Shown piece after piece: positions 18,661 to 34,791 of a stretch of 64,000 bases of DNA. Numbering within the stretch: the first letter of the stretch is position 1; the number at the start of each line of letters is the position of its first letter. The DNA lies in contig JACAEX010000033.1 in NCBI GenBank assembly GCA_013388635.1, forward strand, positions 2,356-66,355. Direction: 5' to 3'. The translations under genes were made by a program, and so were the position numbers. The notes beneath the pieces were generated by a model. It was not told the origin of the DNA. It saw only the letters and a program-made list of their open reading frames with translations, and did not search any database. This DNA is from Syntrophaceae bacterium (lineage in GTDB: Bacteria; Desulfobacterota; BSN033; UBA1163).

Positions 18661-18685
18661 GATAATGCGCCCCTCGGAGCCCAGG

Positions 18686-20194
18686 TTAATTGGCCTTCTT
18701 GGAAACGGAAGCGGCAGACCTTCTCAGGTAATGGGTGATGAAGGGAAGGATGGCTGATAGCAGAACGATGAACCACATCACCTGGCACAGGGTTGAATCC
18801 CAGAGGCCGCTGAGATTGCCTTGGGAGATGATCAGGGCCTGCCTGAGCGATCTTTCCATCACAGGTCCCAAAACCAGGCCGATCACCAGGGGTGCAGGTT
18901 CATAGCCGTACTTTCGCATCAGATAGCCTGTGACTCCAGCTCCGAACATCACCCAGACGTCAAATAGATTGAGATTATCTCCGTAAGCGCCGATCACACA
19001 GAGAACGAGCACGATCGGCATCAGGTATCTCGGAGCAACCCGGACAATCTTTGCGAAGATTCCGACAAGGGGCAGGTTCAGGATCAGGAGCATCGCATTG
19101 CCGAGATAAAAACTTCCGATCACCCCCCAGAAGAGCTCAGGTCGGTCTCGAAGGAGGAAGGGTCCTGGGGTGACTCCGTGAAGGAGCATTCCGCCGAGCA
19201 GCACGGCCGTGGTCGGAGTAAAAGGCAAGCCTAAGGAAAGCAGAGGCACCATGGCCCCTCCTGCAGCTGCATTGTTGGCAGATTCAGGGCCAGCCACCCC
19301 CTCGATAGCCCCTTTGCCGAATTGGTCGCGACGTTTGGAAAGTCGCCGTTCCAGGCTGTAGGAGGCAAAGGCTGCCATGGTCGCAGCAGGTCCAGGCAGG
19401 AGGCCGATCAGGAAGCCTAAGACAGAGCCCCGTGCCATCGGGGCTAAAGAACGCTTCAACTCCTCCCGATCGGGGTAGAGCTCTCGAAATCTGACGGGAA
19501 ACAGCCCCATTGGTTTCTCTTTTTCTGCCATCACGGAGAAGACCTCTGCAACTCCAAAGAGTCCAGTTGTCAGGGCAATAAAACTGATACCTCCCTGTAC
19601 GGATTCAAAACCAAAAGAGAAACGTTCCACACCGCCCACGGGGTCGAACCCAATGGTTGAGAGCATCAAACCGACCATGATCATGATCAAGGATTTCACA
19701 CGGGATTTCCCGGTCAGGTTCGAAAGTAAAATCACACCCAGGACGGTCAGAACAAAATATTCCGCAGGCCCGAAGGCAAGGGCAGACCTTGCCAGCAGCG
19801 GAGCGAAGAACTGCAATGCGATGACGCTGACCGTCCCGGCAACAAAAGAGCCGATGGCTGCGATGGCCAGCGCAGCTCCAGCCCTTCCTTTTTTGGCCAT
19901 TGCATAACCATCCAAGGTTGTGACAACACTGGCAGGCTCTCCAGGGACATTGACGAGGATTGAGGTGGTCGAACCGCCATACATGGAGCCGTAGTAGATA
20001 CCGGCCAGCATGATCAGACCGGCGGTCGGCCCCAGTTTAAGCGTCAAAGGGATGACCAGGGCCATGACAGCCGCAGGGCCAAGCCCGGGCAGCACTCCCA
20101 CCAATGTGCCGACGACCGCACCGGCAAAGCAGGCGAGGAGATTGGCAGGCTGAAAGGCGATCAGAAGAAATGATAAGATGGTGCGGTCAGCCAT
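18686..20194 (-). CDS. tctA: TTT large permease
   Basis: GVLPGLGP, YYGSMYGGS, NVPGEPAS, GVAGPESANNA, GVTPGP. Confidence 0.93.
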   Translation of the reverse strand: MADRTILSFLLIAFQPANLLACFAGAVVGTLVGVLPGLGPAAVMALVIPLTLKLGPTAGLIMLAGIYYGSMYGGSTTSILVNVPGEPASVVTTLDGYAMAKKGRAGAALAIAAIGSFVAGTVSVIALQFFAPLLARSALAFGPAEYFVLTVLGVILLSNLTGKSRVKSLIMIMVGLMLSTIGFDPVGGVERFSFGFESVQGGISFIALTTGLFGVAEVFSVMAEKEKPMGLFPVRFRELYPDREELKRSLAPMARGSVLGFLIGLLPGPAATMAAFASYSLERRLSKRRDQFGKGAIEGVAGPESANNAAAGGAMVPLLSLGLPFTPTTAVLLGGMLLHGVTPGPFLLRDRPELFWGVIGSFYLGNAMLLILNLPLVGIFAKIVRVAPRYLMPIVLVLCVIGAYGDNLNLFDVWVMFGAGVTGYLMRKYGYEPAPLVIGLVLGPVMERSLRQALIISQGNLSGLWDSTLCQVMWFIVLLSAILPFITHYLRRSAASVSKKAN

Positions 20195-20207
20195 GGATCA
20201 TCTCTCT

Positions 20208-20699
20208 CTAAAAAAGGATCCCTCTGGAAAAGGAGAGCTTTAACCAGACCTCGAAGAGGAGGTAACAGAAGAGGTTCGTTCCTGCAGCGAGGGTTACTGG
20301 CCCTTTCCAATCCTTAGCTCCCATCAGTCTGCTGGAGACGATCACGAATAAGAAGGTGGATGTGAAAAAACCAACTAACTTCACCATCGAGAGATAGATG
20401 ATGAAGACCGCAATCATAAGTAGGACTTTTCTCTCTCCTGTATTTCTTTGGAGGATTTCTCTCAAGAATCTTATTTTCTCTTTGCTTCTCTCCTCTTCGG
20501 TCAGCGATCCGGTTTTCCGAAAGGCGCGAATGAACTCAGAGGCAGCCAAGATCACCCATATCCCACCCGCGAGGAGCGGGAAGACCCCAGGCCCGGGGTT
20601 TGCCCACTGGTCCAGGGGATACCTGGTATCGTAGAGCAGAAAAAAGGCTCCACACAGAATCAGGACGAGGCTGCTTGCGATCTCTTTTCGGATCCCCAT
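20208..20699 (-). CDS. tctB: TTT small permease
   Basis: PGPGVFP motif, 4 TM segments, located between tctC and tctA. Confidence 0.88.
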   Translation of the reverse strand: MGIRKEIASSLVLILCGAFFLLYDTRYPLDQWANPGPGVFPLLAGGIWVILAASEFIRAFRKTGSLTEEERSKEKIRFLREILQRNTGERKVLLMIAVFIIYLSMVKLVGFFTSTFLFVIVSSRLMGAKDWKGPVTLAAGTNLFCYLLFEVWLKLSFSRGILF

Positions 20700-20705
20700 A
20701 GAAGG

Positions 20706-21692
20706 CTATTTTGAAAGTCCGGCAGCGATCATGATCTCCTTTGTAATCTTGTCGACCTCACCCACGAACTTGTAAAAGGCTACAGGGTCGAGATACTGGG
20801 GCGTGGTGCCCACGGAGGCAGCGAACTCGGCCCACTCCTTGCTCTCCACCGCTTTCTTGACAATGGCTGTCATCTTATCGATGACCGTTTTGGGCGTTCC
20901 TTTGGGAGCTGCAAACCCCCTCCACTGGTCAAAGACCAGGTCCACGCCCGATTCCTTCATGGTGGGCACGTTTGGCCAGATGCTAATCCGTTTCTCACTG
21001 GTCACCGCCAGAACTCGAACCTCTCCTGCTTTGACCTGGCTCAGGATCTCTGCAGGATGCTGGCTCGAGGCATCGATCTTACCGCCCATCAGGGCAGCCA
21101 CGGCCAGTCCGGTGCCAAATGGAACATGAACGAGCGGTGCGCCAATCTTGGCAGCCATGGCTACTGGTACCATGTGGGTCACGCTTCCGATTCCGGAGTT
21201 GCCCACGGTGACCTTATTGGGGTTCTGTCTGATATAGGCAACGAATTCCTTAAAGTCTTTCCATGGAGCTGTCTTATTGACTGCAATCGCAACCGTCTCA
21301 AAACCGACTCCGGCGATATGCTCGAATGCCCGATAGTCAAAAGAGATCTGTTTTCTCGCCGCCAGGGTATTGATGGCACCGGAATACCAGATCAGGGTAT
21401 AGCCATCGGGTTTTGCCCGATGGACCTCATTGTAGGCGATCGCTCCGCCAGCGCCTGTCACATTGCGAACCACTAAGGGCTGACCGAGATCCCGCGAGAT
21501 GATCTCGGCGAGCTTCCGAGCCTGTATATCGGCAGCTCCTCCGGCTCCAAACGGATTGATCAACTCCACCTGTTTCTCGGGCCATGCCTCCTTCGCCAGG
21601 CTGCTCCCAGCGCCCCACACCAGTATGGCTGTCAATAGGGTTAAGAAGAGCCATCTCCAATAGGTCTTTAAAGCGGCATCCTTTCTCAACAT
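20706..21692 (-). CDS. tctC: TTT substrate-binding protein
   Basis: WPEKQVELINPFGAGG, NVTGAGG, PDGYTL, WRGFAAPKGTP. Confidence 0.9.
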   Translation of the reverse strand: MLRKDAALKTYWRWLFLTLLTAILVWGAGSSLAKEAWPEKQVELINPFGAGGAADIQARKLAEIISRDLGQPLVVRNVTGAGGAIAYNEVHRAKPDGYTLIWYSGAINTLAARKQISFDYRAFEHIAGVGFETVAIAVNKTAPWKDFKEFVAYIRQNPNKVTVGNSGIGSVTHMVPVAMAAKIGAPLVHVPFGTGLAVAALMGGKIDASSQHPAEILSQVKAGEVRVLAVTSEKRISIWPNVPTMKESGVDLVFDQWRGFAAPKGTPKTVIDKMTAIVKKAVESKEWAEFAASVGTTPQYLDPVAFYKFVGEVDKITKEIMIAAGLSK

Positions 21693-21744
21693 GGTCGTCC
21701 TCCTTTCCTTACTCTGGATCGGTCGTCAAAGATGGATCCGAGGC

Positions 21745-22665
21745 CTACAGCATGGCCCAGGCCTCTTTGATCACCCGCTTTGTGTTTGCGATGATCACTT
21801 CGGATGTCTCCTCCGCAAGAAGTGGTCTGACCTCCGCACTGAGCACCGACCTTTTCTGCGGATTCAGAAGCTTCATATCGAGCAGGAGTTTGAAGAAGTC
21901 TCTCACCTGGGCGGTGTCGATCTCGCCGCCCGGCATTCCGAACCGGGGTTGCAGGTCACCGTAGGTCGGATCCCTCCGGTTGCGGAATGAACAATTTCCA
22001 ATGTGGAAGTGGAGAGGAAACTGCTTGACCAGCGGCAGCGCCTGATCCGGTGTCTCCCTGAGCAAGGGGAAATGGGAGAGGTCTGCAAGGACGCCAAAAT
22101 TTTTAAACTCCTTGCGAACCTCGGCTGCCACCTCGGCTGCATCCTTGAAATGGCCGATGAGAAAACATTTGTCGATGTCGTAGTCGAAGACTTTCAGGTA
22201 GATCTCCATCGGGCCCTGTTCCTTCGTGTACTGGCAAACTTCTTTGAGCGAGTCGATGAGAATCTTTTTGGCCTCTTCCTTTTTCTCCTCTCCGGGATGC
22301 TTTCCTGAAAAGACCCGGATGCAGGAGGCCCCGAGATCAAAGGCCTCGTTGGTTCCATTCTTCATCGCGTTGATCGCCCTTCTTCGCTCCTTTGGATCGA
22401 GGGCATTGAGATCGAGCTTGTTGCTGAACATCCTCGGCTGGTTGGCATAGCAGACCTCCATGTGAGAGGTCTCAAGGAGCTTGCGGGCCTCATTCCGCAC
22501 CTTGACATCTTTTATCCAGCCCACCTCCACAGCCGTCCAGAAGTCGTCCTCCACAATCTTCCGGAGCGTCTCGACAACAGGCCCTTCTCCCTCCGAGACC
22601 TGTGGAAATGCCTTGAAGTGCACGATCCCCAGTTTCATGTAACGATAGATTGAGAAATTTTCCAT
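21745..22665 (-). CDS. Xylose-isomerase-like TIM-barrel protein (sugar phosphate isomerase/epimerase family)
   Basis: DLSH, HFHIGN, YGDLQPRFG, AEVRP. Start MENF at 22665 after GAGGAGGAG. Confidence 0.75.
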   Translation of the reverse strand: MENFSIYRYMKLGIVHFKAFPQVSEGEGPVVETLRKIVEDDFWTAVEVGWIKDVKVRNEARKLLETSHMEVCYANQPRMFSNKLDLNALDPKERRRAINAMKNGTNEAFDLGASCIRVFSGKHPGEEKKEEAKKILIDSLKEVCQYTKEQGPMEIYLKVFDYDIDKCFLIGHFKDAAEVAAEVRKEFKNFGVLADLSHFPLLRETPDQALPLVKQFPLHFHIGNCSFRNRRDPTYGDLQPRFGMPGGEIDTAQVRDFFKLLLDMKLLNPQKRSVLSAEVRPLLAEETSEVIIANTKRVIKEAWAML

Positions 22666-22690
22666 CGATCTCCTCCTCAAAACTTACGAA

Positions 22691-23827
22691 TCAATGAACC
22701 TTGACCACGACCTTGATCGCATCTCCGATCCTCTCACGAAAGTATTTGAAGGCGGTCGGCAGCTCCTCCAGGGGAAAGGTGTGGGTATGGATCAGCTTGG
22801 CATCAAAACGTTTCTGCGCCATCAGCGCGGCCGCGCGATGGGTAGCGCTTCGGCCTTCACCCCGGATGCCGAAGACATAAATATTGTTGCGCACTAATTT
22901 GGCAAGATCCACGGGCACCGCCTCTCCGGGGAAGGCGGCCAGACAGATCCGGCCTCCCCGGTTGACCATGTCCATCGCCTCGTTCAGGGCATTGGGAGCG
23001 CCTGAACATTCCATCACGTAATGGACCCCTCTGCCTTTGGTGATCCGCTTCACCGCCTCAACGGGATCCTCATTTTTGACGTTGATCACGTGGTCCGCAC
23101 CTAACCTGGTCCCCAGGTTCAGTCTGGAGTCCCGTGTCCCTGTGAGGATCACAGGCTGGGCTCCTAAGGCCTTGCCCACGGCCACGCTCATCAGCCCGAT
23201 CGGGCCAGGGCCGGTCACAACCAGGCTCTCTCCCGCAATCAGACCACCCAGGACATCGAGACCGTACATCGCTGTCCCAGCGGTGACGATCAGTGTGGCC
23301 TCCTCATCACTCATGCCATCGGGCACATGGACCAGCGTATTGATATGGTTGACCGCATACTCTGCGAAACCACCATCGGTCGTGAAGCCATTGGCACGGT
23401 GGCCCTTGTTCTGCTCACCATAGTTTAAGCCATAATTGAGACAGGACGTATACATGCCCATCCGACATCTCTCACAACGGCCGCAGCCGGCGTGGATCTC
23501 CACTGCGATGCGATCCCCGATTTCGTATTCGTCCACGCCTGGCCCGAGTTTGACCACAGTGCCCATATATTCATGGCCTGGTGTGAAATTCTTATGGAAA
23601 GGGAGCCCCCCCTTTACCCACGCAGGCAGGCCTTTGGTCAGGATCTCCACGTCTGTTCCGCAGATCGCAACCGCATCAATGCGCACCAGGACCTCGGCAG
23701 GCCCTGGTTCCGGAACCGGTTTTTCGACCAGTCGCAGTTCTTCCGGACCATCCAGAACCCATGCCTTCATGGTTTTGGGAACTGAGAGGCCCTCTTTTTG
23801 ATCGGACGTTCTCATCACTGCCTCCAT
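22691..23827 (-). CDS. Zn-dependent medium-chain alcohol dehydrogenase
   Basis: ICGTD, PGHEYMG, CGRCERC...C structural Zn site, GPGPIG, ECSGA. Confidence 0.92.
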   Translation of the reverse strand: MEAVMRTSDQKEGLSVPKTMKAWVLDGPEELRLVEKPVPEPGPAEVLVRIDAVAICGTDVEILTKGLPAWVKGGLPFHKNFTPGHEYMGTVVKLGPGVDEYEIGDRIAVEIHAGCGRCERCRMGMYTSCLNYGLNYGEQNKGHRANGFTTDGGFAEYAVNHINTLVHVPDGMSDEEATLIVTAGTAMYGLDVLGGLIAGESLVVTGPGPIGLMSVAVGKALGAQPVILTGTRDSRLNLGTRLGADHVINVKNEDPVEAVKRITKGRGVHYVMECSGAPNALNEAMDMVNRGGRICLAAFPGEAVPVDLAKLVRNNIYVFGIRGEGRSATHRAAALMAQKRFDAKLIHTHTFPLEELPTAFKYFRERIGDAIKVVVKVH

Positions 23828-23830
23828 TTT

Positions 23831-24724
23831 CTATCCTTTCCAGAATCGACCGGGCCAATCCCTCTTCTCATCCGGGACCTTGAAATCGAACTTCTTTACC
23901 TCTTCGAGGAAGGCGGCCAGGTGGTCGCTGATCCTCTCGAAAATGGCAATGCCCTGCTTCTCACTCGACCTGAGCGGGTTGCCGATGGTCGCCGTGTCCG
24001 AGTACTCGTGGTGGAGCATCGGGACGAAGATATTCTCAGACCCCTGAAAGATGACGGTGTTGGTCCCATCCTTCTTGGAGAAGGCAGGCCCCATCCACTT
24101 TGGGGCGTGGGCACGATCGGGTTTGGCCCGCTCCATGAAGACCGAGCCCTCATAGATTCCCTTCTCCTTCATATAGGCAATGGTCGTGGAGGTCTCGAGC
24201 TCTCCTGCATGCCAGCCAGGTGTCTCCTCAGGAGGACCCTGGAGAACGTCAGCGACCACCGCGCATTCCCTCTCCGTAGGGGTCTTGTAGTAGGCACAGA
24301 AGCAACCGGTCTCAGCCCTCAGGGTGCGAAGGACCTCTCCCTGAGCACCCATGTTGGTGCCATGATGGGAGACATAGACCAGTTTGTTGAAGCCTGCGAA
24401 GATCAGGCTGCGGCCGATCGCATAGAGAACCTGACGGTAGACCTCGGCAGGAAGGGAGATGCTGCCTGTGCCCCAACCCGGCTCGCCCATATGGTGAGGC
24501 GAGAGGCCAAAGGGCAGGAGCGGAGTATAGAGGACTTTGGCCTTTATCGCAGCCCTCTCCACGCTTCCCATCGTGGTGTAGGAATCGACTCCAAGGGGTA
24601 CATGGCTGCCATGCTTTTCGCAGCTGCCAACAGGAATCATGACGACGTCATTGCCTGCCTTCAGATATTCGGCGATGTCCGTCCAGGGTAGCTCCAATAG
24701 GTTGTACTTTTTTAGTTTTGCCAT
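23831..24724 (-). CDS. Creatininase-family hydrolase
   Basis: PVGSCEKHGSHVPLGVD, SPHHMG, SHHGTN, WHAGELETS, GNP. Confidence 0.88.
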   Translation of the reverse strand: MAKLKKYNLLELPWTDIAEYLKAGNDVVMIPVGSCEKHGSHVPLGVDSYTTMGSVERAAIKAKVLYTPLLPFGLSPHHMGEPGWGTGSISLPAEVYRQVLYAIGRSLIFAGFNKLVYVSHHGTNMGAQGEVLRTLRAETGCFCAYYKTPTERECAVVADVLQGPPEETPGWHAGELETSTTIAYMKEKGIYEGSVFMERAKPDRAHAPKWMGPAFSKKDGTNTVIFQGSENIFVPMLHHEYSDTATIGNPLRSSEKQGIAIFERISDHLAAFLEEVKKFDFKVPDEKRDWPGRFWKG

Positions 24725-24763
24725 CTTGACTCTCCTTTCTTCTCGTTTTAGTCATCATTCTTC

Positions 24764-25369
24764 TTAGCCGTTAACGCTATGAAGAAATGCGACCTTTGCG
24801 CAATCCTCCACCAGGTCGGCAATGTAATAGGCGCTTTCAAGATCAGGTCCGACTGCAATGATGCCGTGGCCTTTGAGAAGGTAGGCCTTGGCCTCCATAC
24901 TCTCTTTCACTGTCTCTGTCACATAATCGCACAGCTCCTTCGTTCCCATAAAGGCAAATTGGACCAGAGGGACCTTCGCGAGATTGACCATTCCGGGCGC
25001 GGTCAGAATGGGAAGGGGTTTATCTTTCAAAGAGAGGGCAGTGGCAAAGGGAGGATGGAGATGGGCAATCGCCATCACATCCCCTCTCAATCGATAGATG
25101 GACGTGTGGAAGGGTGTCTCTTTGGAGGGTTTTAAATCCTTCTTACCCTTCAGGAGATTTCCTTCGATGTCCACTTCAATAATGATCTCGGGTGTGATAT
25201 CTCTTAACGATATCCCACTCGGGGTGATGAGCACACGTTCGGTTTCAGGAATTCGAATGCTGAGATTTCCTCCCCTGGCTGCCACCAATCCCCTCTCATA
25301 GGAGAGGCGCGAAAATCTGGCCAGATCATTCTTATATTTGCTCAGTTTATCTCTCTTTTTCTTAACCAT
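24764..25369 (-). CDS. Class II aldolase/adducin family protein
   Basis: GGNLSIR, ITPSG, PSKETPFH, HLHPPFA, LLKGHG. Confidence 0.9.
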   Translation of the reverse strand: MVKKKRDKLSKYKNDLARFSRLSYERGLVAARGGNLSIRIPETERVLITPSGISLRDITPEIIIEVDIEGNLLKGKKDLKPSKETPFHTSIYRLRGDVMAIAHLHPPFATALSLKDKPLPILTAPGMVNLAKVPLVQFAFMGTKELCDYVTETVKESMEAKAYLLKGHGIIAVGPDLESAYYIADLVEDCAKVAFLHSVNG

Positions 25370-26873
25370 TTGGTTTCATCCTTCTACGGGACAAGAGATG
25401 GAATCGATTTCTGAAGAAGGGGATTTCCTTCAGGGTCAAATAGATCAGGATCAGGATCAGGATGATGCAGATCGGCCTGGTGAAGAAGGGGAGAAAGGAG
25501 TAACTGCTCGTCAGGATAGCCCTGCGGAACTGGACATCGATCAGATCTCCCAGGACCATTCCCAGGACCAGCGGAGCGACATCGAACCCAAAACGCCTCA
25601 TCAACAGACCCAGAATGCCGAAGAGGAAAGAAAGGTAGACATCGAACATATTGGAATTGACCGCATAAGACCCGATGGTGCAGAGGATGATGACCACGGT
25701 CATCACCGCCCTTCTCGGCAGTTGCAGGATCTTTGACATCGGCTTGGCCAAAGAGAATCCCTGGAGCGCAAACATGATGTTGCTCGCAAAATGGATCGCA
25801 ACGACCGCATAGATCCAGTGGGGCTGCTCGATCCACATGGAGGGCCCTGGCCTCAGACCGTGGACCAGCATCATTCCCAAGACAATGGCGGTCGTGGCAT
25901 CTCCTGGGATCGCCAGTGTAAGCAGAGGCAGATAGACACCTGCGCAACAGGCATTGTTGGCTGTCTCTGCACCGATGATGCCCTCAGGATTTCCCTTCCC
26001 AAACATTTCTGGATGCTTGCTCGACCGTTTGGCATGGTCATAACCCACCCAGGCAGCAATATTGGCACCGGTGCCTGGCAGCGCTCCGATCAGAAAGCCG
26101 AGGAAGGTCACCTTTATGGTGAGCCACATCCCCCGGAGATATTGATGAAGAGGTGGAAGGACACCGCTCTTCCCCTGAATCGCTTTTCCCTCTGTGGTCT
26201 GGATGAATTCTGACAGGGCCTCTGCCACGCCGTAAAGGCCGATCAGTGCTGGAATATAGGAGATGCCGCCTTCGATCTGGGTGATTCCGAATGTGTAACG
26301 GAGCGTCCCGTGAAGGGGATCCACGCCTACGAGGGAGAAGAGGATGCCGATGATCCCGGCGATCAGCCCCTTGATCGTTGAGCCTGCGGAAAGGTTGGCG
26401 CAGACAAAGATGCCAAAGATGGAGAACCAGAAATATTCCCAGGGGCCAAATTTCAGGGCCAGCTCTGCGACCAGAGGGGCGGAGAACAAGAGGATCAATG
26501 TTCCGATGATTCCTCCTGTGAAGGATTGGAGCGTGCTGATCCCGATCGCCCTGCCTGCTTCACCCCTGAGGGCCATGGGGTAGGCCTCCAGAGCTGTCGC
26601 AGCGGCTGCAGGTGTTCCAGGGACATTGAGGAGGGTTGCTGAGAGGCTTCCACCGTAAGTCGAGGCGGTATAGGCTGCAATCAGGACCAGCATGCCGTTG
26701 AAGGGCGACATCCCATAGGTCAGGGAGACGAGCAGGGAGATCGTCATCGTGCTCGAGATTCCAGGCATGGCACCGCAAAGGAGCCCGAGGAAGCTGAACC
26801 CTGCGAGCATCAGAAGCCTGCCAGGCGTGAGGATGTCAAGAAATTGGTTGAAGAGAAGACCTGCATCGATCAT
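25362..26873 (-). CDS. tctA: TTT large permease
   Basis: GAMPGISS, YGGSLSA..NVPGTP, ETANNA, IPGDA, GLRPGP. Confidence 0.92.
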   Translation of the reverse strand: MIDAGLLFNQFLDILTPGRLLMLAGFSFLGLLCGAMPGISSTMTISLLVSLTYGMSPFNGMLVLIAAYTASTYGGSLSATLLNVPGTPAAAATALEAYPMALRGEAGRAIGISTLQSFTGGIIGTLILLFSAPLVAELALKFGPWEYFWFSIFGIFVCANLSAGSTIKGLIAGIIGILFSLVGVDPLHGTLRYTFGITQIEGGISYIPALIGLYGVAEALSEFIQTTEGKAIQGKSGVLPPLHQYLRGMWLTIKVTFLGFLIGALPGTGANIAAWVGYDHAKRSSKHPEMFGKGNPEGIIGAETANNACCAGVYLPLLTLAIPGDATTAIVLGMMLVHGLRPGPSMWIEQPHWIYAVVAIHFASNIMFALQGFSLAKPMSKILQLPRRAVMTVVIILCTIGSYAVNSNMFDVYLSFLFGILGLLMRRFGFDVAPLVLGMVLGDLIDVQFRRAILTSSYSFLPFFTRPICIILILILIYLTLKEIPFFRNRFHLLSRRRMKPNG

Positions 26874-27403
26874 AAATAGGTCCGGCCAATCATGAATTTT
26901 AATAGATATTCAAAGACCCCGAGCCTCAGGGGCAATCCGAAGATACAGGAAAAGATTGCGAAGAGACCGACCACCGTTGTAAAAGCGACGATGACTGCGT
27001 AATACCATTTGATACGGGGTGCATAGATCCGGATTCCAATCACGACGAATAATAGACTTGCGGGATAGAATTGGAGGTAAGAGATGCTTACAATGAATAG
27101 AAGAACAAAGGCAATGGTGAAGAGGGCTCTATGAAATTCACGGTTTTTTAAAAAGAGAAAGAGATGGAGAAAGGCCTTCCCATTCGACCCCGCTCCGAAG
27201 AATCTTCCGCCCTGGCTCCGGGCCTTGATCATAAGGCCAGATCCCAATCCTGCCAGAATGATCGACAGGCCTATTGGAACCGCTGCTGGAGCATCGATCC
27301 AGCGGCCCGGGATGGGTAGAGAGGCGCTGTAAAGGATCAGAAAGATAGCCACGCCTATGATCAGGATTCCAAGAAAGAGATCCTCTCTGGGCTGATCGGC
27401 CAT
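26870..27403 (-). CDS. tctB: TTT small permease
   Basis: 4 TM segments, overlaps the tctA start. Probable start MADQ after GGAG. Confidence 0.8.
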   Translation of the reverse strand: MADQPREDLFLGILIIGVAIFLILYSASLPIPGRWIDAPAAVPIGLSIILAGLGSGLMIKARSQGGRFFGAGSNGKAFLHLFLFLKNREFHRALFTIAFVLLFIVSISYLQFYPASLLFVVIGIRIYAPRIKWYYAVIVAFTTVVGLFAIFSCIFGLPLRLGVFEYLLKFMIGRTYL

Positions 27404-27505
27404 GGGTTTGCTCCGGCTCGTTCTTTTGGAGACTAATGCGTAAAAGGATGGGAGGAATGGCACGATCGATTAAAAGATGTAAAAACCATCCCTCCCTTAG
27501 CCCCT

Positions 27506-28543
27506 TTACTCCTTATATCGCTCGATCTTGACCGTCTCAGGGCTTCTTGCAGCTGCGCCCAGGTCGTAAAGAAGCCAGCTGACCACCCGGGTTCCAATCT
27601 CAGCCTGTTGATCCGCTTCCTTGCCAAAGACCCGTGCCGGGATCCAGTTTCGCTTCTTCAGGATTTCCATGAACTCAGGATCCTTTTCCACTGCAAACCT
27701 GGCTGCCTCCACCATCTTCTCGATATATTTCTCAGGCACATCCCGATGATAGCAGAGACCTCGGGAGCCTTTGATCGAGATCAACACCTTCTCCGAAATC
27801 CCGGGCACAAACTGGGTGATCGGAGGGATATCGGGCAATCCCTCTATCTTGAAGGGTTTTGTATCCATCACAGCCAGGGCCCTGAGGCGTTTCTCCTTCA
27901 GAAGGTTGAAGGATTCACCGATGTCGCTCATCCCGACCAGCGTCTCTCCCTTCATCGCTGCAACGGCTGAAGGGTAGCCACCGCCCTGAGAGACCGGGAT
28001 GAATTTTTTGGCTCCTATCTTATTGGCAAAAAGGGCCAGCCCCTGATACCAGGGTCCTCCCACATATTCGAAGGCTATTGGAATGCTCTCCTCCTTCATC
28101 TTCTTGATCAGGTCGTCCATCGTCTTGAGAGGGGAGTTGTAAGCTGTATTGAAGGTGGAAATCCCAAGGGCTGTCTGGGCCACCATTCGGTAATCCCGAT
28201 AAGTGAAGTCGGAGAGACCGGTGGCTGGCATTGCATAGAAGCCCGTGGTCCAGCCAAGCAGGGTATAGCCGTCTTTGGGTTGATTGAAGACGTAGCGCAT
28301 GGCCACGCCTCCTCCCGCGCCCTCCATATTGACAACCGCAATGGGAACGCCCAGAAATTTTTCCATTCCTGACTTGATCGCACGAATGCTGAGGTCGGTT
28401 CCCCCTCCTGCCTTGAATGGGATGACCACGGTGATCGGCCGGGTGGGCCATTTCTCCTCTGCGGCAAAGGATGAAATGGAAATGAACAGAAGGCTGAGAG
28501 CCGCCATTCCAATGGCCATCTTGAAGATTCTGCTTCGTTTCAT
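27506..28543 (-). CDS. tctC: TTT substrate-binding protein
   Basis: WPTRPITVVIPFKAGGGTD, NMEGAGG, DGYTLL. Confidence 0.88.
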   Translation of the reverse strand: MKRSRIFKMAIGMAALSLLFISISSFAAEEKWPTRPITVVIPFKAGGGTDLSIRAIKSGMEKFLGVPIAVVNMEGAGGGVAMRYVFNQPKDGYTLLGWTTGFYAMPATGLSDFTYRDYRMVAQTALGISTFNTAYNSPLKTMDDLIKKMKEESIPIAFEYVGGPWYQGLALFANKIGAKKFIPVSQGGGYPSAVAAMKGETLVGMSDIGESFNLLKEKRLRALAVMDTKPFKIEGLPDIPPITQFVPGISEKVLISIKGSRGLCYHRDVPEKYIEKMVEAARFAVEKDPEFMEILKKRNWIPARVFGKEADQQAEIGTRVVSWLLYDLGAAARSPETVKIERYKE

Positions 28544-28582
28544 CTCTCTCTCCTTTCTCGAAGAAATAGGGTTTAGACTATC

Positions 28583-28990
28583 TCACACCCATGGGTCCTC
28601 TAAGTAGACCGTGCCTGCGGCCTCTTTGCTCGGGCAGTTTCCGTAGGTGAAGATCAGCTCTGCTGTCTCGGTATTGCTCATGTTCAACAGACCGTGAATC
28701 CCTCCTGCAGGCGAGAAGACGATATGGTTCTCCGGAACGATGTACTCCTTCTTCTCCTCGCCGATGAAGACCTTGATCGTCCCCTTTCTGACAAAGAAAG
28801 CGGCATCGCAGTTGGCGTGGTAATGGCGCTGGTTCCTGCCGCCTGGCGGGATGATGGTCCTGCCCATGGTGATCGTCTTCGTTCCGGTGGTGAACTGGTC
28901 GACTCCCCAGGCGATGATGAGGGGAGGTTCATACTTGGTGTCCTTGTCCACCTTGTCTGTGTTGATGATCCTTGGTTCAAGCTTTGACAT
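28583..28990 (-). CDS. Cupin domain protein
   Basis: RHYHANCD...PAGGIHGLLN. Confidence 0.82.
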   Translation of the reverse strand: MSKLEPRIINTDKVDKDTKYEPPLIIAWGVDQFTTGTKTITMGRTIIPPGGRNQRHYHANCDAAFFVRKGTIKVFIGEEKKEYIVPENHIVFSPAGGIHGLLNMSNTETAELIFTYGNCPSKEAAGTVYLEDPWV

Positions 28991-29034
28991 CTTCCTTTCC
29001 TCCTCCTGAACGAATTAAGTATAGTAAAACTCCC

Positions 29035-30534
29035 TCATGGGGAGTTCGTCAGAGCGTTGCGCTTCCAGAGTCTTTTAAAGATCGGTGTCAGCATCAGAAA
29101 GGCGGCCACAGAAAGCAAGGCGGCTGAAATGGGCTTTTCGAAAAAGATCGAGACCTCTCCTCCGGATGAGATCAACGACTGTTGCAGAGACCTTTCAAGG
29201 ATGGGGCCCAGGATCATGGAGAGGATCAGCGGAGCCGGCGGAAACCCTCCTTTTCGCATGAAGTATCCGAGGACTCCGAAGATGACCATCATCCCCACGT
29301 CAAATGCTGAATTCTTCACACTGTAGGCGCCGATCAAACAGATCGTCACCACGACCACAGCGAGGAAGTGGTAGGGAACCCGAAGCAGCCGAACCCAGAA
29401 GCCGATCAGAGGCAAATTGAGTCCAAGCAACATCAAATTTCCGATGTACATGGAGGCCACGACCCCCCAGAAGAGATTGGGATGCTCCTGGATCAGCAAT
29501 GGTCCCGGTCGTATCCCATGGATCATGAGCGCAACAAAGATCATGGCGATCGTCGCGTTTCCCGGGATCCCCAGCGTGAGAAGGGGAATGAAGGAGGAGG
29601 TGGAGGCTGCATTGTTGGCTGACTCCGGAGCAGCAACCCCCTCGATCGCTCCTTTGCCAAATTGTTCCGGATGCTTGGAGACCCGCTTCTCGACCGCGTA
29701 GGAGACGAAGGAGCTGATGATCGCCCCTCCACCTGGAAGCACACCGATGAAGAAGCCTAAGAGAGAACCTCTGACCACCGAGGCCCAGCACCTTCGCCAA
29801 TCCTCCAGAGTGGGAAGGAGCCTTTTTAAAGCGGTCTTGAAGATGTCTCTGACCTCCGGCGCCTCCAGATTGATCAGCACCTCGGAGATGCCGAAGAGGC
29901 CCATGGCGACCACAACGAAATCGAACCCATCGGTGAGACGGGAGAGGCCAAAGGTGAATCGCGTGGCGCCGAGCACAGGATCAATGCCCACAGTTCCCAG
30001 GAGGAGGCCCAGACCACCCATGACAAGCCCTTTGACAATCGATTCCTCAGAGAGGTAGACCGCCATCATCAGGCCTAAAAGAATGAGCGAGAAGTATTCA
30101 GGGGGGCCGAACTTGAGGGCGAAGCTGGCCAGTGTCGGTGCCACCAGGGATAGGCCGAAGATGCTGATCGTTCCAGCGATGAATGAACCCATGGCAGATA
30201 TGCCAAGGGCCGGGCCTGCCCGGCCCTGTCTGGCCATCTTGTATCCGTCGAGACAGGTGACCACAGAGGCAGCTTCGCCAGGGATGTTGAGAAGGATCGA
30301 TGTGGTCGATCCGCCGTACATCGCTCCGTAGAAGATCCCTGCCAACATGATGATCGCAGCAGTCGGATCCATCTTATAGGTAAGAGGCAGGAGCAGTGCC
30401 ACTGTGGCCGGTGGCCCCAGACCGGGTAAAACCCCGATCGCTGTTCCGATCACGGCGCCCAATGCTGCAAAGATCAGATTCCATGGGTTGAGGGCTATGG
30501 AAAAGCCGTTGCCAAGGTTGGTCAGAAAATCCAT
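29035..30534 (-). CDS. tctA: TTT large permease
   Basis: GVLPGLGP, YGAMYGGS, NIPGEAAS, GVAAPESANNA. Confidence 0.93.
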   Translation of the reverse strand: MDFLTNLGNGFSIALNPWNLIFAALGAVIGTAIGVLPGLGPPATVALLLPLTYKMDPTAAIIMLAGIFYGAMYGGSTTSILLNIPGEAASVVTCLDGYKMARQGRAGPALGISAMGSFIAGTISIFGLSLVAPTLASFALKFGPPEYFSLILLGLMMAVYLSEESIVKGLVMGGLGLLLGTVGIDPVLGATRFTFGLSRLTDGFDFVVVAMGLFGISEVLINLEAPEVRDIFKTALKRLLPTLEDWRRCWASVVRGSLLGFFIGVLPGGGAIISSFVSYAVEKRVSKHPEQFGKGAIEGVAAPESANNAASTSSFIPLLTLGIPGNATIAMIFVALMIHGIRPGPLLIQEHPNLFWGVVASMYIGNLMLLGLNLPLIGFWVRLLRVPYHFLAVVVVTICLIGAYSVKNSAFDVGMMVIFGVLGYFMRKGGFPPAPLILSMILGPILERSLQQSLISSGGEVSIFFEKPISAALLSVAAFLMLTPIFKRLWKRNALTNSP

Positions 30535-30611
30535 TCAACACCTCAGGCCCTGAAAACCTCCTAAATAAAGGCGCTTAACCTGATTTTTCATAACTTCAAC
30601 ACCTTCTGATC

Positions 30612-31067
30612 TCAAAGGCCGAACCTTGTCAAGATGCCAGCAGGCAGGGTGATTCCTAAGAGCCAGTCAAAAAGCAGATACGTTCCGATCGATAGAACCA
30701 GGCTCGTGACCAGGAGCGCCCGCCAAGACTTTATACCCATGATCCGAAGCACCACCGCGATCAGAAAAGGGGAGGCGAGCACATAACCCAAAGGTTCCAA
30801 GACCGCTACAAAAGCAGCCAAGACAGCGATGAGCATGGCAGGCCGCTTGATCTCTCCAAGGCCTATCCTCCTTTTGCTTCGGCCGAGCCAACCCTGGACA
30901 AAGATGATCGACGAAAGGATGACGATAATAGCACCGCTCAGGAAAGGGAAGAAGCCTGGCTGGGGCTCTGTGGGTGTTCCCACGCGAAGCCCGATCGCTC
31001 CGATGATCGCGCCGATTCCCAATAGGATGAGAAAAAGGCTCCCCAGAATATCGGTCAGGTTTTTCAT
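30612..31067 (-). CDS. tctB: TTT small permease
   Basis: PQPGFFP motif, 4 TM segments. Confidence 0.88.
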   Translation of the reverse strand: MKNLTDILGSLFLILLGIGAIIGAIGLRVGTPTEPQPGFFPFLSGAIIVILSSIIFVQGWLGRSKRRIGLGEIKRPAMLIAVLAAFVAVLEPLGYVLASPFLIAVVLRIMGIKSWRALLVTSLVLSIGTYLLFDWLLGITLPAGILTRFGL

Positions 31068-31103
31068 GCCGGCTGACCCCCCCGAAAAGATCGACATCCC
31101 TTT

Positions 31104-32057
31104 CTATTTCTTAAAGATCTTTCCTAACTCCTTATGGGTTTCAAACTCCTCCCGCCAGTATTTCGTGATCTCCTCGGATCCCAGGTAATGGAAATCGTCT
31201 CCAAGCTTCTTGATCATGGCGATTGCGGACCTGTCCTCTGTCATCTTCTTGAATGCCAGAGCCAGTTTTTCAATGATCGGCCGGGGCGTACCCTTTGGGG
31301 CCATGATCCCCTTCCAGAGGAGATTGACGATATTGACCCCTTCTTCTTTCAATGTTGGGACGTCAGGAAGGTCGGGATCGCGCCTGGTGTCCGAGACGGC
31401 TAAGGGTCGAAGTTTTCCAGCCTTGATATGGGGCAGGGTCTGGGTAGGTGCGAGGACCACGATATCAATATGGCCGCCAAGGATCCCGAGAAGCGCCTCG
31501 CCGCCTCCATCGTACGGGACGACCTTAGTCGTAATACCGGTCTGATGCATGATCTGTTTCCAGCAGAGATCTGGTCCTCCCCATACTCCTGCATGGCCAA
31601 ATTTGAGTTGGTTGGGATGGGCCTTCGCATACTGGATCAGTTCTTTAAAGGTTTTGTAGGGCGCATGGGTAGGGACGAGGACGAACATCGGAGCGTAATT
31701 GATCCGGCAGACAGCCACCAGATCGTCCGGACCCTTTGATCGGCCTTCGATGGCCGGAAGGGTGGTGTTCGGTCCCGGGCCACCCATCAGCAACGTATAT
31801 CCGTCTGGAGCGGCCTTTGCGACCATTTCAGAAGCGATCGCCCCTCCTCCACCGGGCTTGAGCTGGATGACGATCGGCTGTCCGAGATGATCCGGGGCTA
31901 CGCTGACCAGTGCCCTTGCGGTCAGGTCGCTTGCGCCACCCGGTCCGAACGGGATGATCAGGAGCACGGGTTTGGTCGGAAATTCCTGAGCTTGGACAGA
32001 ATGAACGCAAAAAAGAGAGAGAAGAAAGAGGCTGAGAAGAAGAGATCTTTTTTTCAT
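31104..32057 (-). CDS. tctC: TTT substrate-binding protein
   Basis: FPTKPVLLIIPFGPGG, KPGGGG, PDGYTLL, WKGIMAPKGTP. Confidence 0.9.
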   Translation of the reverse strand: MKKRSLLLSLFLLSLFCVHSVQAQEFPTKPVLLIIPFGPGGASDLTARALVSVAPDHLGQPIVIQLKPGGGGAIASEMVAKAAPDGYTLLMGGPGPNTTLPAIEGRSKGPDDLVAVCRINYAPMFVLVPTHAPYKTFKELIQYAKAHPNQLKFGHAGVWGGPDLCWKQIMHQTGITTKVVPYDGGGEALLGILGGHIDIVVLAPTQTLPHIKAGKLRPLAVSDTRRDPDLPDVPTLKEEGVNIVNLLWKGIMAPKGTPRPIIEKLALAFKKMTEDRSAIAMIKKLGDDFHYLGSEEITKYWREEFETHKELGKIFKK

Positions 32058-32093
32058 TATGTTCTCCTTATCTTGATCTTGGTTTTGGTTTAT

Positions 32094-33221
32094 TTAACGA
32101 TAGAACTCATCCAGGTCAATGGGGAGCTTCAGTGCGTGTCCCCGCTCTGCTGAGAGATCCATGGCCATGGTCAGAACGAGATTCCGATGCCCATCCTCAG
32201 CCGTGGCATGGGGCGTTTCGAGCCCTGTGCAGAGCCGGGCAAACCATGAAATGGTCTCCTCCCGCATCGGTCCCCAGAGCTGGCCAAAGGCCACATCTCC
32301 AGGAGGAAAACTCCCGAGGAAATCGACGTGGCGTTCGAAGTCTGGCTTGTAACCCTCGGGTCTATAGCCAGCCCACTGGGGAAGTTCTGAGGCGATGATC
32401 ACGTCTCGATGGGTATCGTCGATGTCGATCACCCCTTTGGTTCCAACAATTCCAACTTCAATTCCGTAAACCGCCCCTGGCCAGACGATCGGCAGGGCCC
32501 AGCTGATGTTCATGCTCCAGATGGTGCCGTCCTTAAACGTGAAGAGACCGAAGGTGGAATCTTTCGTTCCCCACTGACCCAGGGCTTTATCGACCGAGCG
32601 GGCATAGACCTCCACTGGTTCCTTTCCCTCCAACATCCACATCGTCAGATCGAGACTGTGGGTGCCTGAGACCACCATAGGGGTGAGATGCCTCCGTTCC
32701 TTTGCCCGGCTCACTGTCGGGATGGGGACCATGCGGTTCATGAAAGCCCTGGTCACGACCGATGTCACCTCACCGATCTGGCCGCTCCTCAGTTTTTCTT
32801 TCACCCCTAAGAATCGGCGTCGAAAACGATTGGTATAGCCCACGACCGCGTCAACTCTGCTCTTCTGGATGGCGGTGAGGACCTTGAGGGATTCCTTCAC
32901 ATCCGTGGCCAGTGGTTTTTCGATCAACAGGTCATGCGCTCGCTCCACAGCAGTCAGGGTGGGACCGACATGGTTGGTCTCGTCCGTGGAGATGATGGTC
33001 GCTGTGATCTCAGGACGTCTGAGAAGCTCCCTGTAATCGGTGGTGTAGAAATCGGCCTTCACATCCTCGGCAAGCTGTTTGACCAGATTCTCTTTCACAT
33101 CGCAGAGGCCGAGCCAGGCCACCCCGGGATAACTCCGGGCGAAGAGCGTCCGGATACGACCGATGGTACCGCATCCGACCACTGCCAATCCAATCTCTTT
33201 CTTATGCCCTTTCTTTTCCAT
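32094..33221 (-). CDS. Gfo/Idh/MocA family oxidoreductase
   Basis: LAVVGCGTIG, LIEKPLA, GYTNRF, SGTHSLD. Probable start MEKK at 33221. Confidence 0.87.
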   Translation of the reverse strand: MEKKGHKKEIGLAVVGCGTIGRIRTLFARSYPGVAWLGLCDVKENLVKQLAEDVKADFYTTDYRELLRRPEITATIISTDETNHVGPTLTAVERAHDLLIEKPLATDVKESLKVLTAIQKSRVDAVVGYTNRFRRRFLGVKEKLRSGQIGEVTSVVTRAFMNRMVPIPTVSRAKERRHLTPMVVSGTHSLDLTMWMLEGKEPVEVYARSVDKALGQWGTKDSTFGLFTFKDGTIWSMNISWALPIVWPGAVYGIEVGIVGTKGVIDIDDTHRDVIIASELPQWAGYRPEGYKPDFERHVDFLGSFPPGDVAFGQLWGPMREETISWFARLCTGLETPHATAEDGHRNLVLTMAMDLSAERGHALKLPIDLDEFYR

Positions 33222-33237
33222 GCATTCCCCCCATCTT

Positions 33238-34011
33238 TTATCGAAGGTACCTCCCTCCGCTGACATCGATCGTGATCCCCGTGATGTAACTCGATTCATT
33301 CGATGCGAGGAAGACGACCACAGAGGCCACTTCCTCTGGAGTCCCCAGCCTGCCCAATGGAATTCCGGAGAGGACCTTCTGTTTCTCCTCCTCGCTCTTT
33401 CCATCCCAGAGGGATTGGATCCGATCGCCGGTCATGGTCACGGTAGGAGCCACGGCATTCACCCGGATCCCTGCCTTTCCCCAATCGTAGGCAAGTTGAC
33501 GGGTCAATCCTTCGACCCCTGCCTTGGCCGCGGTATATTGGACCCCTGCCAGTGAAGCCCTCCAATGGCCAGCCAGAGCGGAGATGTTGACGATCACCCC
33601 GCCTCCCTGTTTCACCATCTCCGGGATGACCGCCTGGCAGCATAAGAACGTTCCCTTGAGATTGACATCGACCACAAGGTTCCAATCCTTTTCCTCGATC
33701 TCCTCGAGGAGGTAGGGTGTGTTCAGTGCGCCTCCGGCATTGTTCACCAGGATGTCGATGCTTCCCCAGAGGTTCTTCATCTCCTGGACAAAGAGGAGGA
33801 CATCGGACTTATGGGTGACGTCCACCCTTTTACCGATCACCCGGCCGGACTTCGGGTCAAGCTGCCTGGCAGCCTCAACCGCCCCCTTCTCATCGATGTC
33901 GAGGATTGCCACGCGCGCCCCTTCCTGATAAAGGGCCCTGGCGATCGCGAACCCCATGCCCCGTGCTGCTCCTGTGACCATGGCGTTCTTGTCGAGGAGG
34001 CGTTTACACAT
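33238..34011 (-). CDS. Short-chain dehydrogenase/reductase (SDR)
   Basis: TGAARGMG, LVNNAG, YTAAK (YxxxK), RVNAVAP. Confidence 0.93.
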   Translation of the reverse strand: MCKRLLDKNAMVTGAARGMGFAIARALYQEGARVAILDIDEKGAVEAARQLDPKSGRVIGKRVDVTHKSDVLLFVQEMKNLWGSIDILVNNAGGALNTPYLLEEIEEKDWNLVVDVNLKGTFLCCQAVIPEMVKQGGGVIVNISALAGHWRASLAGVQYTAAKAGVEGLTRQLAYDWGKAGIRVNAVAPTVTMTGDRIQSLWDGKSEEEKQKVLSGIPLGRLGTPEEVASVVVFLASNESSYITGITIDVSGGRYLR

Positions 34012-34038
34012 CTTACTCTCCTTTAAATCAACCCTCTC

Positions 34039-34791
34039 TTAAGCCTGTAGCCTTCGTGAGATCTCTCCCGTTCTCTTCCCCTTAACAGGAGGAGAGGAGC
34101 GGTAGAGGACCTTCAGAAATTCTTTTCCGATGTCTGAGAGGTGTCCTGCCATCAGACGGCGAGCCCGGGAGGCATCGCCCTCTTTGATCGCCTCGAAGAT
34201 GCGCTGATGGTAGTGGAGGGACCGTCTACTGATGTTCGACTCCTGAATGACCAGAGCGATATTCTCCTTAAGCAGGTCCCTTATCTTTTGGATGAAGTCG
34301 TAGAGGATGCTGTTTTTGGCCGCCCTGGCAATCGAGAGATGGAAGCGATAGTCAGCCTCGATGAAACCCGCTGCATCGCCGATCTGAGATTCCATCTGAC
34401 GAAGACTTTCTTCGAGGGCCCTCATATCCTCCGGCTCCGCCCTTTTGGCTGCTGAGGCAGAGAGCTCGGTTTCAATGATCTGACGGACCTCGATGATCTC
34501 TGCGATGTTCCATTCCTGCTGGGACCTGGCGAAGGGAAGGGAGGAGGTTGACTTCCAGAAGGAGTCCGGAGTCACATAGAGCCCCCTGTTCCTCCTCTCA
34601 AGATACCCCATATGAACCAGGGCATTGAGGGCCTCCCTCAACGAGCTCCGGCTGGCAGAAAGCTGCGAGGCCATCTCGATCTCCGGAGGGAGTTTCTGGC
34701 CAGGTGCGAGCTCGCCAGAAAGGATGGCGGTTCGAATCTGATCCAGGATGCCATCGGAAACCAGGATTTTTTCGACCGGTTTCAACCCCAT
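34039..34791 (-). CDS. GntR/FadR-family transcriptional regulator
   Basis: LAPGQKLPPE..MASQLSASRSSLREAL HTH followed by an FCD domain (DYRFHLSIA). Confidence 0.9.
   Translation of the reverse strand: MGLKPVEKILVSDGILDQIRTAILSGELAPGQKLPPEIEMASQLSASRSSLREALNALVHMGYLERRNRGLYVTPDSFWKSTSSLPFARSQQEWNIAEIIEVRQIIETELSASAAKRAEPEDMRALEESLRQMESQIGDAAGFIEADYRFHLSIARAAKNSILYDFIQKIRDLLKENIALVIQESNISRRSLHYHQRIFEAIKEGDASRARRLMAGHLSDIGKEFLKVLYRSSPPVKGKRTGEISRRLQA

Follow-up and report, generated by a model that had tools for sequence, protein, structure and literature searches.

The 64,000-nucleotide window analysed here, a stretch of contig JACAEX010000033.1 from a Syntrophaceae bacterium, carries a 16-kb minus-strand run of 17 intact open reading frames (ORFs; 34791 down to 18686, from ORF listing and Pfam) that combines three tripartite tricarboxylate transporter (TTT) systems with a set of dehydrogenases, a hydrolase, an epimerase-like enzyme and an aldolase. 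The question raised by this locus is whether the run encodes one dedicated pathway or was joined from parts with separate histories. A preliminary description of the same DNA had treated it as a single co-inherited unit for ring opening of a polyhydroxylated carboxylate, by analogy with the inositol route of Thermotoga. Comparison with related genomes led to another answer: the run is a mosaic of two catabolic operons, each conserved on its own elsewhere, and we take both, with modest confidence, to belong to one and the same uncharacterised pathway family. The parts are called module B (from the short-chain dehydrogenase/reductase, SDR, to the class II aldolase) and module A (from the creatininase-family hydrolase to the last TTT system), and both stand behind a GntR/FCD regulator gene.

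Module A comprises the creatininase-like hydrolase, a zinc-dependent dehydrogenase (Zn-ADH), a xylose-isomerase-like triosephosphate isomerase (TIM) barrel and TctC1B1A1, and, judged by its orthologues, it corresponds to the downstream portion of an operon that moves horizontally. Relatives of the hydrolase numbered 569 in species-representative genomes, and 78 loci were examined. The canonical gene order, present in metagenome-assembled genomes (MAGs) labelled Syntrophorhabdales, Syntrophaceae and 'delta proteobacterium', was LacI, hydrolase, UPF0261, class II aldolase, Zn-ADH, TIM barrel and TctCBA. A variant in Moorella/Neomoorella followed the order LacI, hydrolase, aldolase, TIM barrel, UPF0261, Zn-ADH and TctCBA, and a short form in Thermus scotoductus held the hydrolase, UPF0261, aldolase and TctCBA; the named canonical carriers are Moorella humiferrea CP136421.1, Neomoorella stamsii DSM 26217 and Syntrophorhabdaceae MAGs. 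The hydrolase, Zn-ADH, TIM barrel and TctCBA of the window were 80–92% identical to those of loci L005–L042 and were arranged in the same order. Taken singly, orthologues of the hydrolase reached 80–94% identity across several phyla, those of the Zn-ADH, which adjoin the hydrolase gene, 82–92%, and those of TctC1B1A1, which close the canonical module A operons, 72–90%. When the partners were counted by tblastn at the 35 module A loci with full flanks, UPF0261 and Zn-ADH were each found at 33, the class II aldolase at 28, TctA and LacI at 21 each and the TIM barrel at 20. No Gfo/Idh/MocA dehydrogenase (Gfo), cupin or transaldolase-family (TAL) gene accompanied module A at any of these 35 loci, nor on the same strand at any of the 78. 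Variants of module A lacking the kinase gene were also encountered (L011, L020 and G020). The window thus resembles the canonical operon in the orthology and order of its hydrolase, Zn-ADH, TIM barrel and TctC1B1A1, but it lacks LacI, UPF0261 and the A-type aldolase and is fused behind another operon under GntR; the aldolases of canonical A operons were only 44–52% identical to the one in the window. The hydrolase was 83–92% identical in MAGs (L005–L042) labelled delta proteobacterium/Syntrophorhabdales, Acidobacteriota, candidate division NC10 and Spirochaetota, whereas the best homologue in a same-genus genome (G001, L127) reached only 57%, which suggests horizontal spread of module A and very strong constraint on the hydrolase.

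Module B has its own distribution. Elsewhere (L100–L105, L113 and G066; 78–97% identity) it was found as UPF0261, SDR, TAL_FSA, Gfo, TctCBA, cupin, an optional further TctCBA and aldolase, and the order SDR, Gfo, TctC3B3A3, cupin, TctC2B2A2 and terminal aldolase was common to the window and to module B operons. Compared with L101 and L103, the window products were 85–86% identical for SDR and for Gfo, 87% for TctA3, 94% for the cupin and 78–81% for the aldolase. Gfo orthologues (85–87%) occurred in L095–L098, L101 and L103, and the cupin, which was the most conserved partner of Gfo (91–97% identical in L095–L097, L100–L105, G017 and G066), always lay downstream of it with variable genes in between. 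The window aldolase falls in a clade of 74–88% identity whose members were always the last gene of module B operons; in the whole class (68 species), a B-type aldolase was found only in the window genome and G066, and in the latter no hydrolase gene comes after it. The GntR/FCD gene was absent from the orthologous module B operons. The chromosomal slot of module B lies in a conserved backbone (aminotransferase, ketol-acid reductoisomerase and ATP-binding cassette (ABC) ATPase on one side, xanthine/uracil permease on the other), and its contents vary, with Gfo, another Zn-ADH and cupin in L095 and Gfo, TTT, cupin and TTT in L097. Minimal forms, in which UPF0261, SDR, TAL_FSA and aldolase stand together without intervening Gfo, cupin or TTT genes, were seen in L113 and L106, and from these the Gfo–TTT–cupin segment looks like an insert in an older four-gene core. 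In L103 (6445–9066), TctC was broken into ORFs of 186 and 157 aa and TctA was short (384 aa); the transporter of that locus appears to be decaying while the enzymes remain intact.

The idea of one dedicated, co-inherited unit was not borne out, since the two blocks are found apart in other genomes. The backbone slot of G017, which belongs to the same family, holds B, and this genome has its complete canonical A on a different contig. Neither module was present in the same-genus genome. Co-occurrence of the whole gene set was found only in two closely related fused metagenome contigs, L144 and L145, which come from other samples and contain the same junction: the tail of tctA2 followed by the aldolase (85%), hydrolase (94%), Zn-ADH (92%), TIM barrel (92%) and TctC1 (90%). 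At the nucleotide level, the window was about 83–86% identical to these contigs, and its products were 85–94% identical to those of L144 in the same order. The aldolase gene, which overlaps the tctA2 stop by 8 nt, marks the point at which B meets A. An assembly chimera at this point was considered and rejected, because the junction recurs in both contigs; the arrangement has persisted through considerable divergence. L144 carries a spacer of 286 nt between hydrolase and Zn-ADH (1730–2017), against a gap of 3 nt in the window (23827–23831), and the longer spacer might carry an internal regulatory element in the L144 lineage.

Further links between the modules were found outside the fused contigs. 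Homologues of the SDR (61–69%) were immediate neighbours of creatininase-like genes in loci of Bacillota and Spirochaetota, homologues of the GntR regulator (63–66%) lay inside cassettes of dihydrodipicolinate synthase (DHDPS), creatininase-like, GntR and Zn-ADH genes in G001, G002 and G013, and aldolases 58–61% identical to that of the window were placed directly upstream of creatininase-like genes in L115–L117. In L020, Gfo (74%) and TTT genes, an SDR and an Amidohydro_2 gene adjoin a module A without kinase. The retained fusion, the kinase family and related aldolases common to both modules, these neighbours and the L020 locus together suggest that A and B are members of one network whose parts have been shuffled and serve related substrates, and in which intermediates may possibly be shared.

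Compared with its parent operons, the run has lost LacI and the aldolase of A, the transaldolase-family gene of B and the UPF0261 kinases of both, and it has gained the GntR/FCD gene. The preliminary description was right that the cluster holds no kinase, as no kinase family was detected by Pfam in the 17 products, but the kinase-free pathway end deduced from this was not supported, given that UPF0261 is carried by 33 of the 35 A loci and by several B operons, those of L101, L103 and L113 among them. Seen against these relatives, the absence of the kinase appears to be an accident of the window lineage. The aldolase contains the motifs GGN35, TPSG52, PSKE84, H103-L-H105 and KGHG, with one phosphate-pocket Ser replaced by Lys; by offset, these match N29, T43-G44, S71-S72-E73, H92/H94 and H155 of FucA, positions that we take to provide the zinc ligands, the catalytic Glu and the phosphate pocket. 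The putative FucA-type motifs and the kinases of orthologous operons make a kinase-free ending less likely than one in which the aldolase acts on a phosphorylated substrate and the kinase is provided from elsewhere in the genome. A single UPF0261 gene was located in the genome (contig C20:80134-81348), whose product shared 70% identity with the module B kinase of L103 and 38% with a module A kinase; an A-type orthologue was absent from the whole genome. Kinase activity in UPF0261 has been shown for MarK of Novosphingobium aromaticivorans, which acts on aromatic ketones such as acetovanillone (PMC12624787). MarK is the only member with demonstrated activity. Both parent operons have a UPF0261 gene as companion, and the window contains none. 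The gene on C20 belongs to its own cluster with GntR, Liv-type ABC and 2-hydroxyacid dehydrogenase genes; this cluster (C20:74200-88100), the sole one with UPF0261, has a cupin and another Zn-ADH nearby and lies ~30 kb from a distant creatininase-like gene (28%), itself beside a Zn-ADH and an SDR at ~48–51 kb of the same contig (47900–51200).

The three TTT systems were confirmed as complete and divergent. TctA, TctB and TctC lie adjacent in each of them and all exceed the Pfam gathering score, the weakest being TctC2 (51 bits, gathering 27) and TctB2 (31 bits, gathering 29), and pairwise identities among the systems were 37–49% for TctA, 27–35% for TctC and 21–29% for TctB. Their presence in one run had been called unusual; three divergent sets are indeed there, but the genome as a whole has 10 TctA and at least 13 TctC genes, with 4 TctA within 57 kb on one other contig, and in L097, L101 and G066 module B by itself already includes a pair of TTT systems. 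The run has three because a two-TTT operon was joined to a one-TTT operon. Orthologues of TctC3B3A3 were identified in L097 (TctA 90%, TctC 67%), L101 and L104. TctC2, a divergent binding protein, and TctA2 were 91% identical to their counterparts in L101 and TctB2 67%, and no orthologues of TctC2B2A2 above 41% were detected in 40 related genomes. TctC binding proteins possess a carboxylate pincer in domain 1 with the motif P-F-x-A-G-G-x-x-D (PMC5812351). The motif is kept in TctC1 (PFGAGGAAD), TctC2 (PFKAGGGTD) and, with one substitution, TctC3 (PFGPGGASD), which points to carboxylates rather than neutral cyclitols as the probable ligands of the three proteins.

The inositol pathway of Thermotoga maritima proceeds through IolG, IolM, IolN and IolO (Rodionova et al. 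2013, Environ Microbiol 15:2254, as cited in PMC3750489). The likeness proposed for the run holds at the level of families and folds, as Gfo/Idh/MocA, zinc-dependent medium-chain dehydrogenase/reductase (MDR), creatininase-family and ketose-epimerase-type TIM enzymes are all present, but it does not extend to orthology. When scored with the NCBIfam profiles for IolG (TIGR04380), IolM (NF041097), IolN (NF041098) and IolO (NF041099), the Gfo reached 113 bits (cut-off 355), the Zn-ADH 207 bits (cut-off 450), the hydrolase 62 bits (cut-off 245) and the TIM barrel 38 bits (cut-off 300). With all scores so far below the equivalog cut-offs, none of the four enzymes is an orthologue of its counterpart in the Thermotoga pathway. 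The Zn-ADH scored higher with the threonine-3-dehydrogenase profile (242 bits, also below cut-off), and the nearest solved relative of the Gfo was DgpA, a C-glycoside 3-oxidising enzyme (101 bits). The arrangement differs as well from that of T. maritima: the Gfo sits in module B and the other three enzymes in module A, so that they are separately inherited, the importers are carboxylate-type TTT systems and not an inositol ABC system, and the canonical module A lacks an IolG-type enzyme but includes, in addition, a class II aldolase and a UPF0261 kinase.

The IolO profile was the only NCBIfam match of the TIM barrel. Its AlphaFold model (pLDDT 88) was most similar by Foldseek to TM0416 of T. 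maritima in the Protein Data Bank (PDB; 2ZVR and 5H1W; E 1e-12, TM 0.67–0.77, 20% identity), followed by D-tagatose/psicose 3-epimerases, YcjR and UlaE; its PDB sequence search gave no match. An IolE-type dehydratase, as expected for the Bacillus type of inositol logic, was rejected on the grounds that the only profile was IolO and the top folds were ketose 3-epimerases. For the hydrolase, IolN was the only profile that aligned over the full length; creatininase (TIGR04448, 58.7 bits, cut-off 235) and MftE (TIGR03964, 64.9 bits, cut-off 172) matched the N-terminal part only, and PDB sequence matches covered just the N-terminal 115 residues of creatininases. Its model (pLDDT 81) adopted the creatininase fold (TM 0.65–0.80, 19–23% identity), and the presumed metal-ligand columns E36-x-H38, D47, H120/H121 and E175/E177 were invariant among homologues. 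The PDB sequence search with the cupin returned no informative solved relative. The aldolase reached no NCBIfam equivalog cut-off, its matches including L-ribulose-5-phosphate 4-epimerase (128 bits) and the 3-oxo-tetronate-4-phosphate decarboxylase OtnC (NF043034, 112 bits against a cut-off of 250). Operons of the Sgb and Otn kinds combine a carboxylate importer, a dehydrogenase, a TIM-barrel epimerase/isomerase, a kinase and a class II aldolase-family enzyme whose substrate is a phosphorylated keto intermediate. The logic of the parent operons is like that of Ula/Sgb (E. coli yiaK-S/sgb, ula) and OtnK/OtnC/OtnI, but UPF0261 replaces the FGGY or DUF1537 kinase, a creatininase-family hydrolase is added, the orotidine monophosphate (OMP)-decarboxylase-type gene (UlaD/SgbH) is missing and no acid-sugar-route profile reaches its cut-off. 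Pfam detected no DUF1537 domain in the 17 products.

A course of events and reactions compatible with these findings can be proposed. Module A would have been placed directly behind B's aldolase, with the loss of LacI, A's aldolase and both kinases, and a GntR gene with relatives in creatininase cassettes would have come to head the unit. The three TTT systems would import related carboxylated polyols or sugar acids, whose secondary alcohols the NAD-dependent Gfo, SDR and Zn-ADH could oxidise to keto intermediates. The binuclear-metal hydrolase may then cleave an activated bond, either by IolN-like hydrolysis of a β-dicarbonyl C–C bond or by opening of a lactone; the TIM barrel may epimerise adjacent to the carbonyl, and the cupin may isomerise. 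Phosphorylation of the product by the UPF0261 kinase of C20 would precede cleavage or decarboxylation to a triose- or pentulose-phosphate by the single class II aldolase-family enzyme, putatively shared between the modules. A more specific version, regarded as quite unlikely to be right in its details, would make A and B two entry branches of an undescribed pathway by which hydroaromatic or cyclitol carboxylates, for instance acids of the quinate/shikimate type or keto derivatives of these, are degraded without oxygen. The ring would be oxidised to a β-dicarbonyl and hydrolytically opened by the strongly conserved creatininase-like enzyme, and the product would be phosphorylated by a UPF0261 kinase and split by the aldolase; literature searches on anaerobic quinate/shikimate ring cleavage returned nothing relevant.

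Several points weigh against the joined-operon explanation and its chemistry. A and B are usually unlinked and may serve unrelated substrates, the UPF0261 kinase on C20 may be dedicated to its own cluster, and the transaldolase-family gene of B is missing from the window, its nearest copy being 55% identical and located in a tripartite ATP-independent periplasmic (TRAP) transporter cluster on contig C83. The kinase-less variants of module A could mean a non-phosphorylative route, and candidate reactions of the hydrolase include C–C, lactone and amide cleavage. Probable co-transcription from the promoter-like site before the GntR gene is deduced from short gaps and a consensus promoter scan. 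Passive juxtaposition, by which A and B would degrade unrelated carboxylates and share only a promoter and perhaps a regulator after insertion into a variable slot, is a possibility to be taken seriously, without being the outcome we expect. The unlinked modules of G017, the 0 of 78 module A loci with Gfo, cupin or TAL on the same strand, the occurrence of B without A in L097, L100–L105 and G066, the ABC ATPase–permease slot that differs among L095, L097 and the window, and the abundance of TTT systems in the genome would all be compatible with it. Such an origin does not readily explain why the fusion was kept at ~83–86% nucleotide identity in two other assemblies, why both modules normally share rare partners (UPF0261 and a closely related aldolase clade) or why the genes lost by A are exactly those available from B or from elsewhere in the genome; nor does it account for the SDR, GntR and DHDPS relatives of B-type operons that recur beside creatininase-like genes, or for L020 as a second, independent neighbourhood of A and Gfo.

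The chemistry could also be that of linear acid sugars, of the Ula/Sgb (ascorbate/2,3-diketogulonate) or Otn (threonate/erythronate) type, with the hydrolase as lactonase, the TIM barrel as keto-acid or pentulose-phosphate 3-epimerase/isomerase, UPF0261 in place of LyxK/OtnK and the aldolase-family enzyme as 4-epimerase or β-keto-acid decarboxylase. The two profile matches of the aldolase, UlaE and YcjR among the structural matches of the TIM barrel and the operon logic of Sgb and Otn speak for this assignment, which is nevertheless considered rather unlikely: the locus has neither an OMP-decarboxylase-type gene nor a DUF1537 kinase, the OtnC and epimerase scores stay below cut-off, and the aldolase has Glu at the position of FucA Glu73, which we presume to be the more aldolase-like state. 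To our knowledge, no creatininase-family lactonase is known. The earlier view of one dedicated 17-gene Thermotoga-style ring opening, with IolG-, IolM-, IolN- and IolO-like steps on a cyclic polyhydroxy carboxylate and a kinase-independent end, now seems improbable. It had in its favour the family-level matches to all four Thermotoga enzymes, TM0416 as the best structural match of the TIM barrel and carboxylate-type transporters in place of the inositol ABC system, but the four scores were far below the equivalog cut-offs, the gene set was not co-inherited, the canonical A is complete and widespread without a Gfo-type first dehydrogenase, a kinase is present in 33/35 orthologous operons and the aldolase keeps what we take to be FucA-type phosphate-binding residues. 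Finally, three or four near-universal genes of the parent operons are missing, which could indicate a fused cluster that became non-functional after losing its kinases, LacI and the transaldolase-family gene. Decay of this kind is very improbable in view of 17 intact frames with good ribosome-binding sites, products 85–94% identical to those of L144 in conserved order and conserved catalytic columns.

The features of the run are listed in the table. The earlier count of 17 co-directional genes with gaps of about 100 nt or less was borne out by the ORF listing (17 genes, largest gap 77 nt), and Pfam upheld each of the family assignments made before. After correction of starts, intergenic distances ranged from -8 to 77 nt; the Gfo start was set at Met62 of the long ORF (33221), and that of the TIM barrel at MENFS (22665) from the alignment of homologues. 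Good ribosome-binding sites and intact reading frames were found for the 17 genes over 16 kb, and the sequence GAGAGGAAAG precedes the ATG of the GntR/FCD gene at 34791. A consensus scan of 18000–35500 found TTGACA-17-TATACT to be the sole strong sigma-70-like minus-strand site, and a hairpin scan detected no terminator-like hairpins between the genes of the run. The short gaps, the one strong promoter-like site and the absence of intergenic terminators suggest that the run is laid out like a single transcription unit.

Table. Positions of the genes of the run and of the predicted promoter in the window, in the order of reading on the minus strand.
Feature	Module	Position	Strand	Basis or remark
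Promoter-like site TTGACA-17-TATACT		34905..34933	-	11/12 consensus matches; predicted, 5' of the GntR/FCD gene
GntR/FCD (FadR-subfamily) regulator		34039-34791	-	Pfam GntR + FCD; first gene of the run
SDR dehydrogenase	B	33238-34011	-	Pfam adh_short
Gfo/Idh/MocA dehydrogenase	B	32094-33221	-	Pfam; 375 aa
TctC3	B	31104-32057	-	Pfam, 193 bits
TctB3	B	30612-31097	-	Pfam, 75 bits
TctA3	B	29035-30534	-	Pfam, 573 bits
Small metal-binding cupin	B	28583-28990	-	Pfam Cupin_2
TctC2	B	27506-28543	-	Pfam, 51 bits
TctB2	B	26870-27463	-	Pfam, 31 bits
TctA2	B	25362-26873	-	Pfam, 459 bits
Class II aldolase/adducin-family protein	B (last gene)	24764-25369	-	Pfam Aldolase_II, 160 bits
Creatininase-family metal hydrolase	A	23831-24724	-	Pfam Creatininase, 159 bits
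Zn-dependent MDR dehydrogenase (Zn-ADH)	A	22691-23827	-	Pfam ADH_N + ADH_zinc_N
Xylose-isomerase-like TIM barrel, ketose 3-epimerase type	A	21745-22665	-	Pfam AP_endonuc_2
TctC1	A	20706-21692	-	Pfam
TctB1	A	20208-20699	-	Pfam
TctA1	A	18686-20194	-	Pfam

The locus is a derived mosaic and not a new kind of system, and its interest lies in what it indicates about its parents. The combination of hydrolase, Zn-ADH, TIM barrel, UPF0261, aldolase and TTT is among the more widespread bacterial catabolic operons without an assigned substrate; the window contains a TTT-linked form of A and delineates a second conserved operon (Gfo, cupin, SDR, transaldolase-family gene, UPF0261 and aldolase) that uses the same kinase and aldolase families. 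The window also demonstrates that two such operons can merge and stay merged, and its kinase-less state, like the other natural kinase-less variants, may reveal which steps are shareable or supplied in trans. Literature searches returned no paper describing this gene combination or either operon, and for UPF0261 only the MarK paper was relevant. Cultured carriers (Moorella/Neomoorella and Thermus scotoductus) make the pathway experimentally approachable, and solving it would give functions to two poorly understood families, UPF0261 and a deep clade of creatininases, as well as to several binding proteins of TTT systems. Should the two-branch hydroaromatic version be true, the route would be non-aromatic and independent of oxygen, and this hydrolase clade and the operon-linked UPF0261 kinases would each gain a first physiological role.

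Other ORFs of the window lie opposite or beyond the run. An antisense ORF of 297 aa (23798–24691, plus strand) exactly mirrors the hydrolase gene, and similar long ORFs occur opposite the hydrolase or Zn-ADH in many related loci; rather than being a gene, it most likely arises from codon composition. On the plus strand, a CN-hydrolase (15975–16808) and an S15/PepX-type peptidase (16894–18660) converge on tctA1, with 25 nt between the stops; they lie between the run and the xanthine/uracil permease (14553–15857), which in L097 comes directly after the second TTT system. An orphan fourth TctC (12210–13181, plus strand), an Amidohydro_2 gene (13326–14417, plus strand) and a TRAP system (DctM 8987–10303, DctQ 10308–10865, DctP 11092–12162) provide further carboxylate-catabolic functions just outside the run, and the window also holds a second Gfo/Idh/MocA gene (7202–8260) and a β-hydroxyacid dehydrogenase gene (6156–7082), both on the minus strand.

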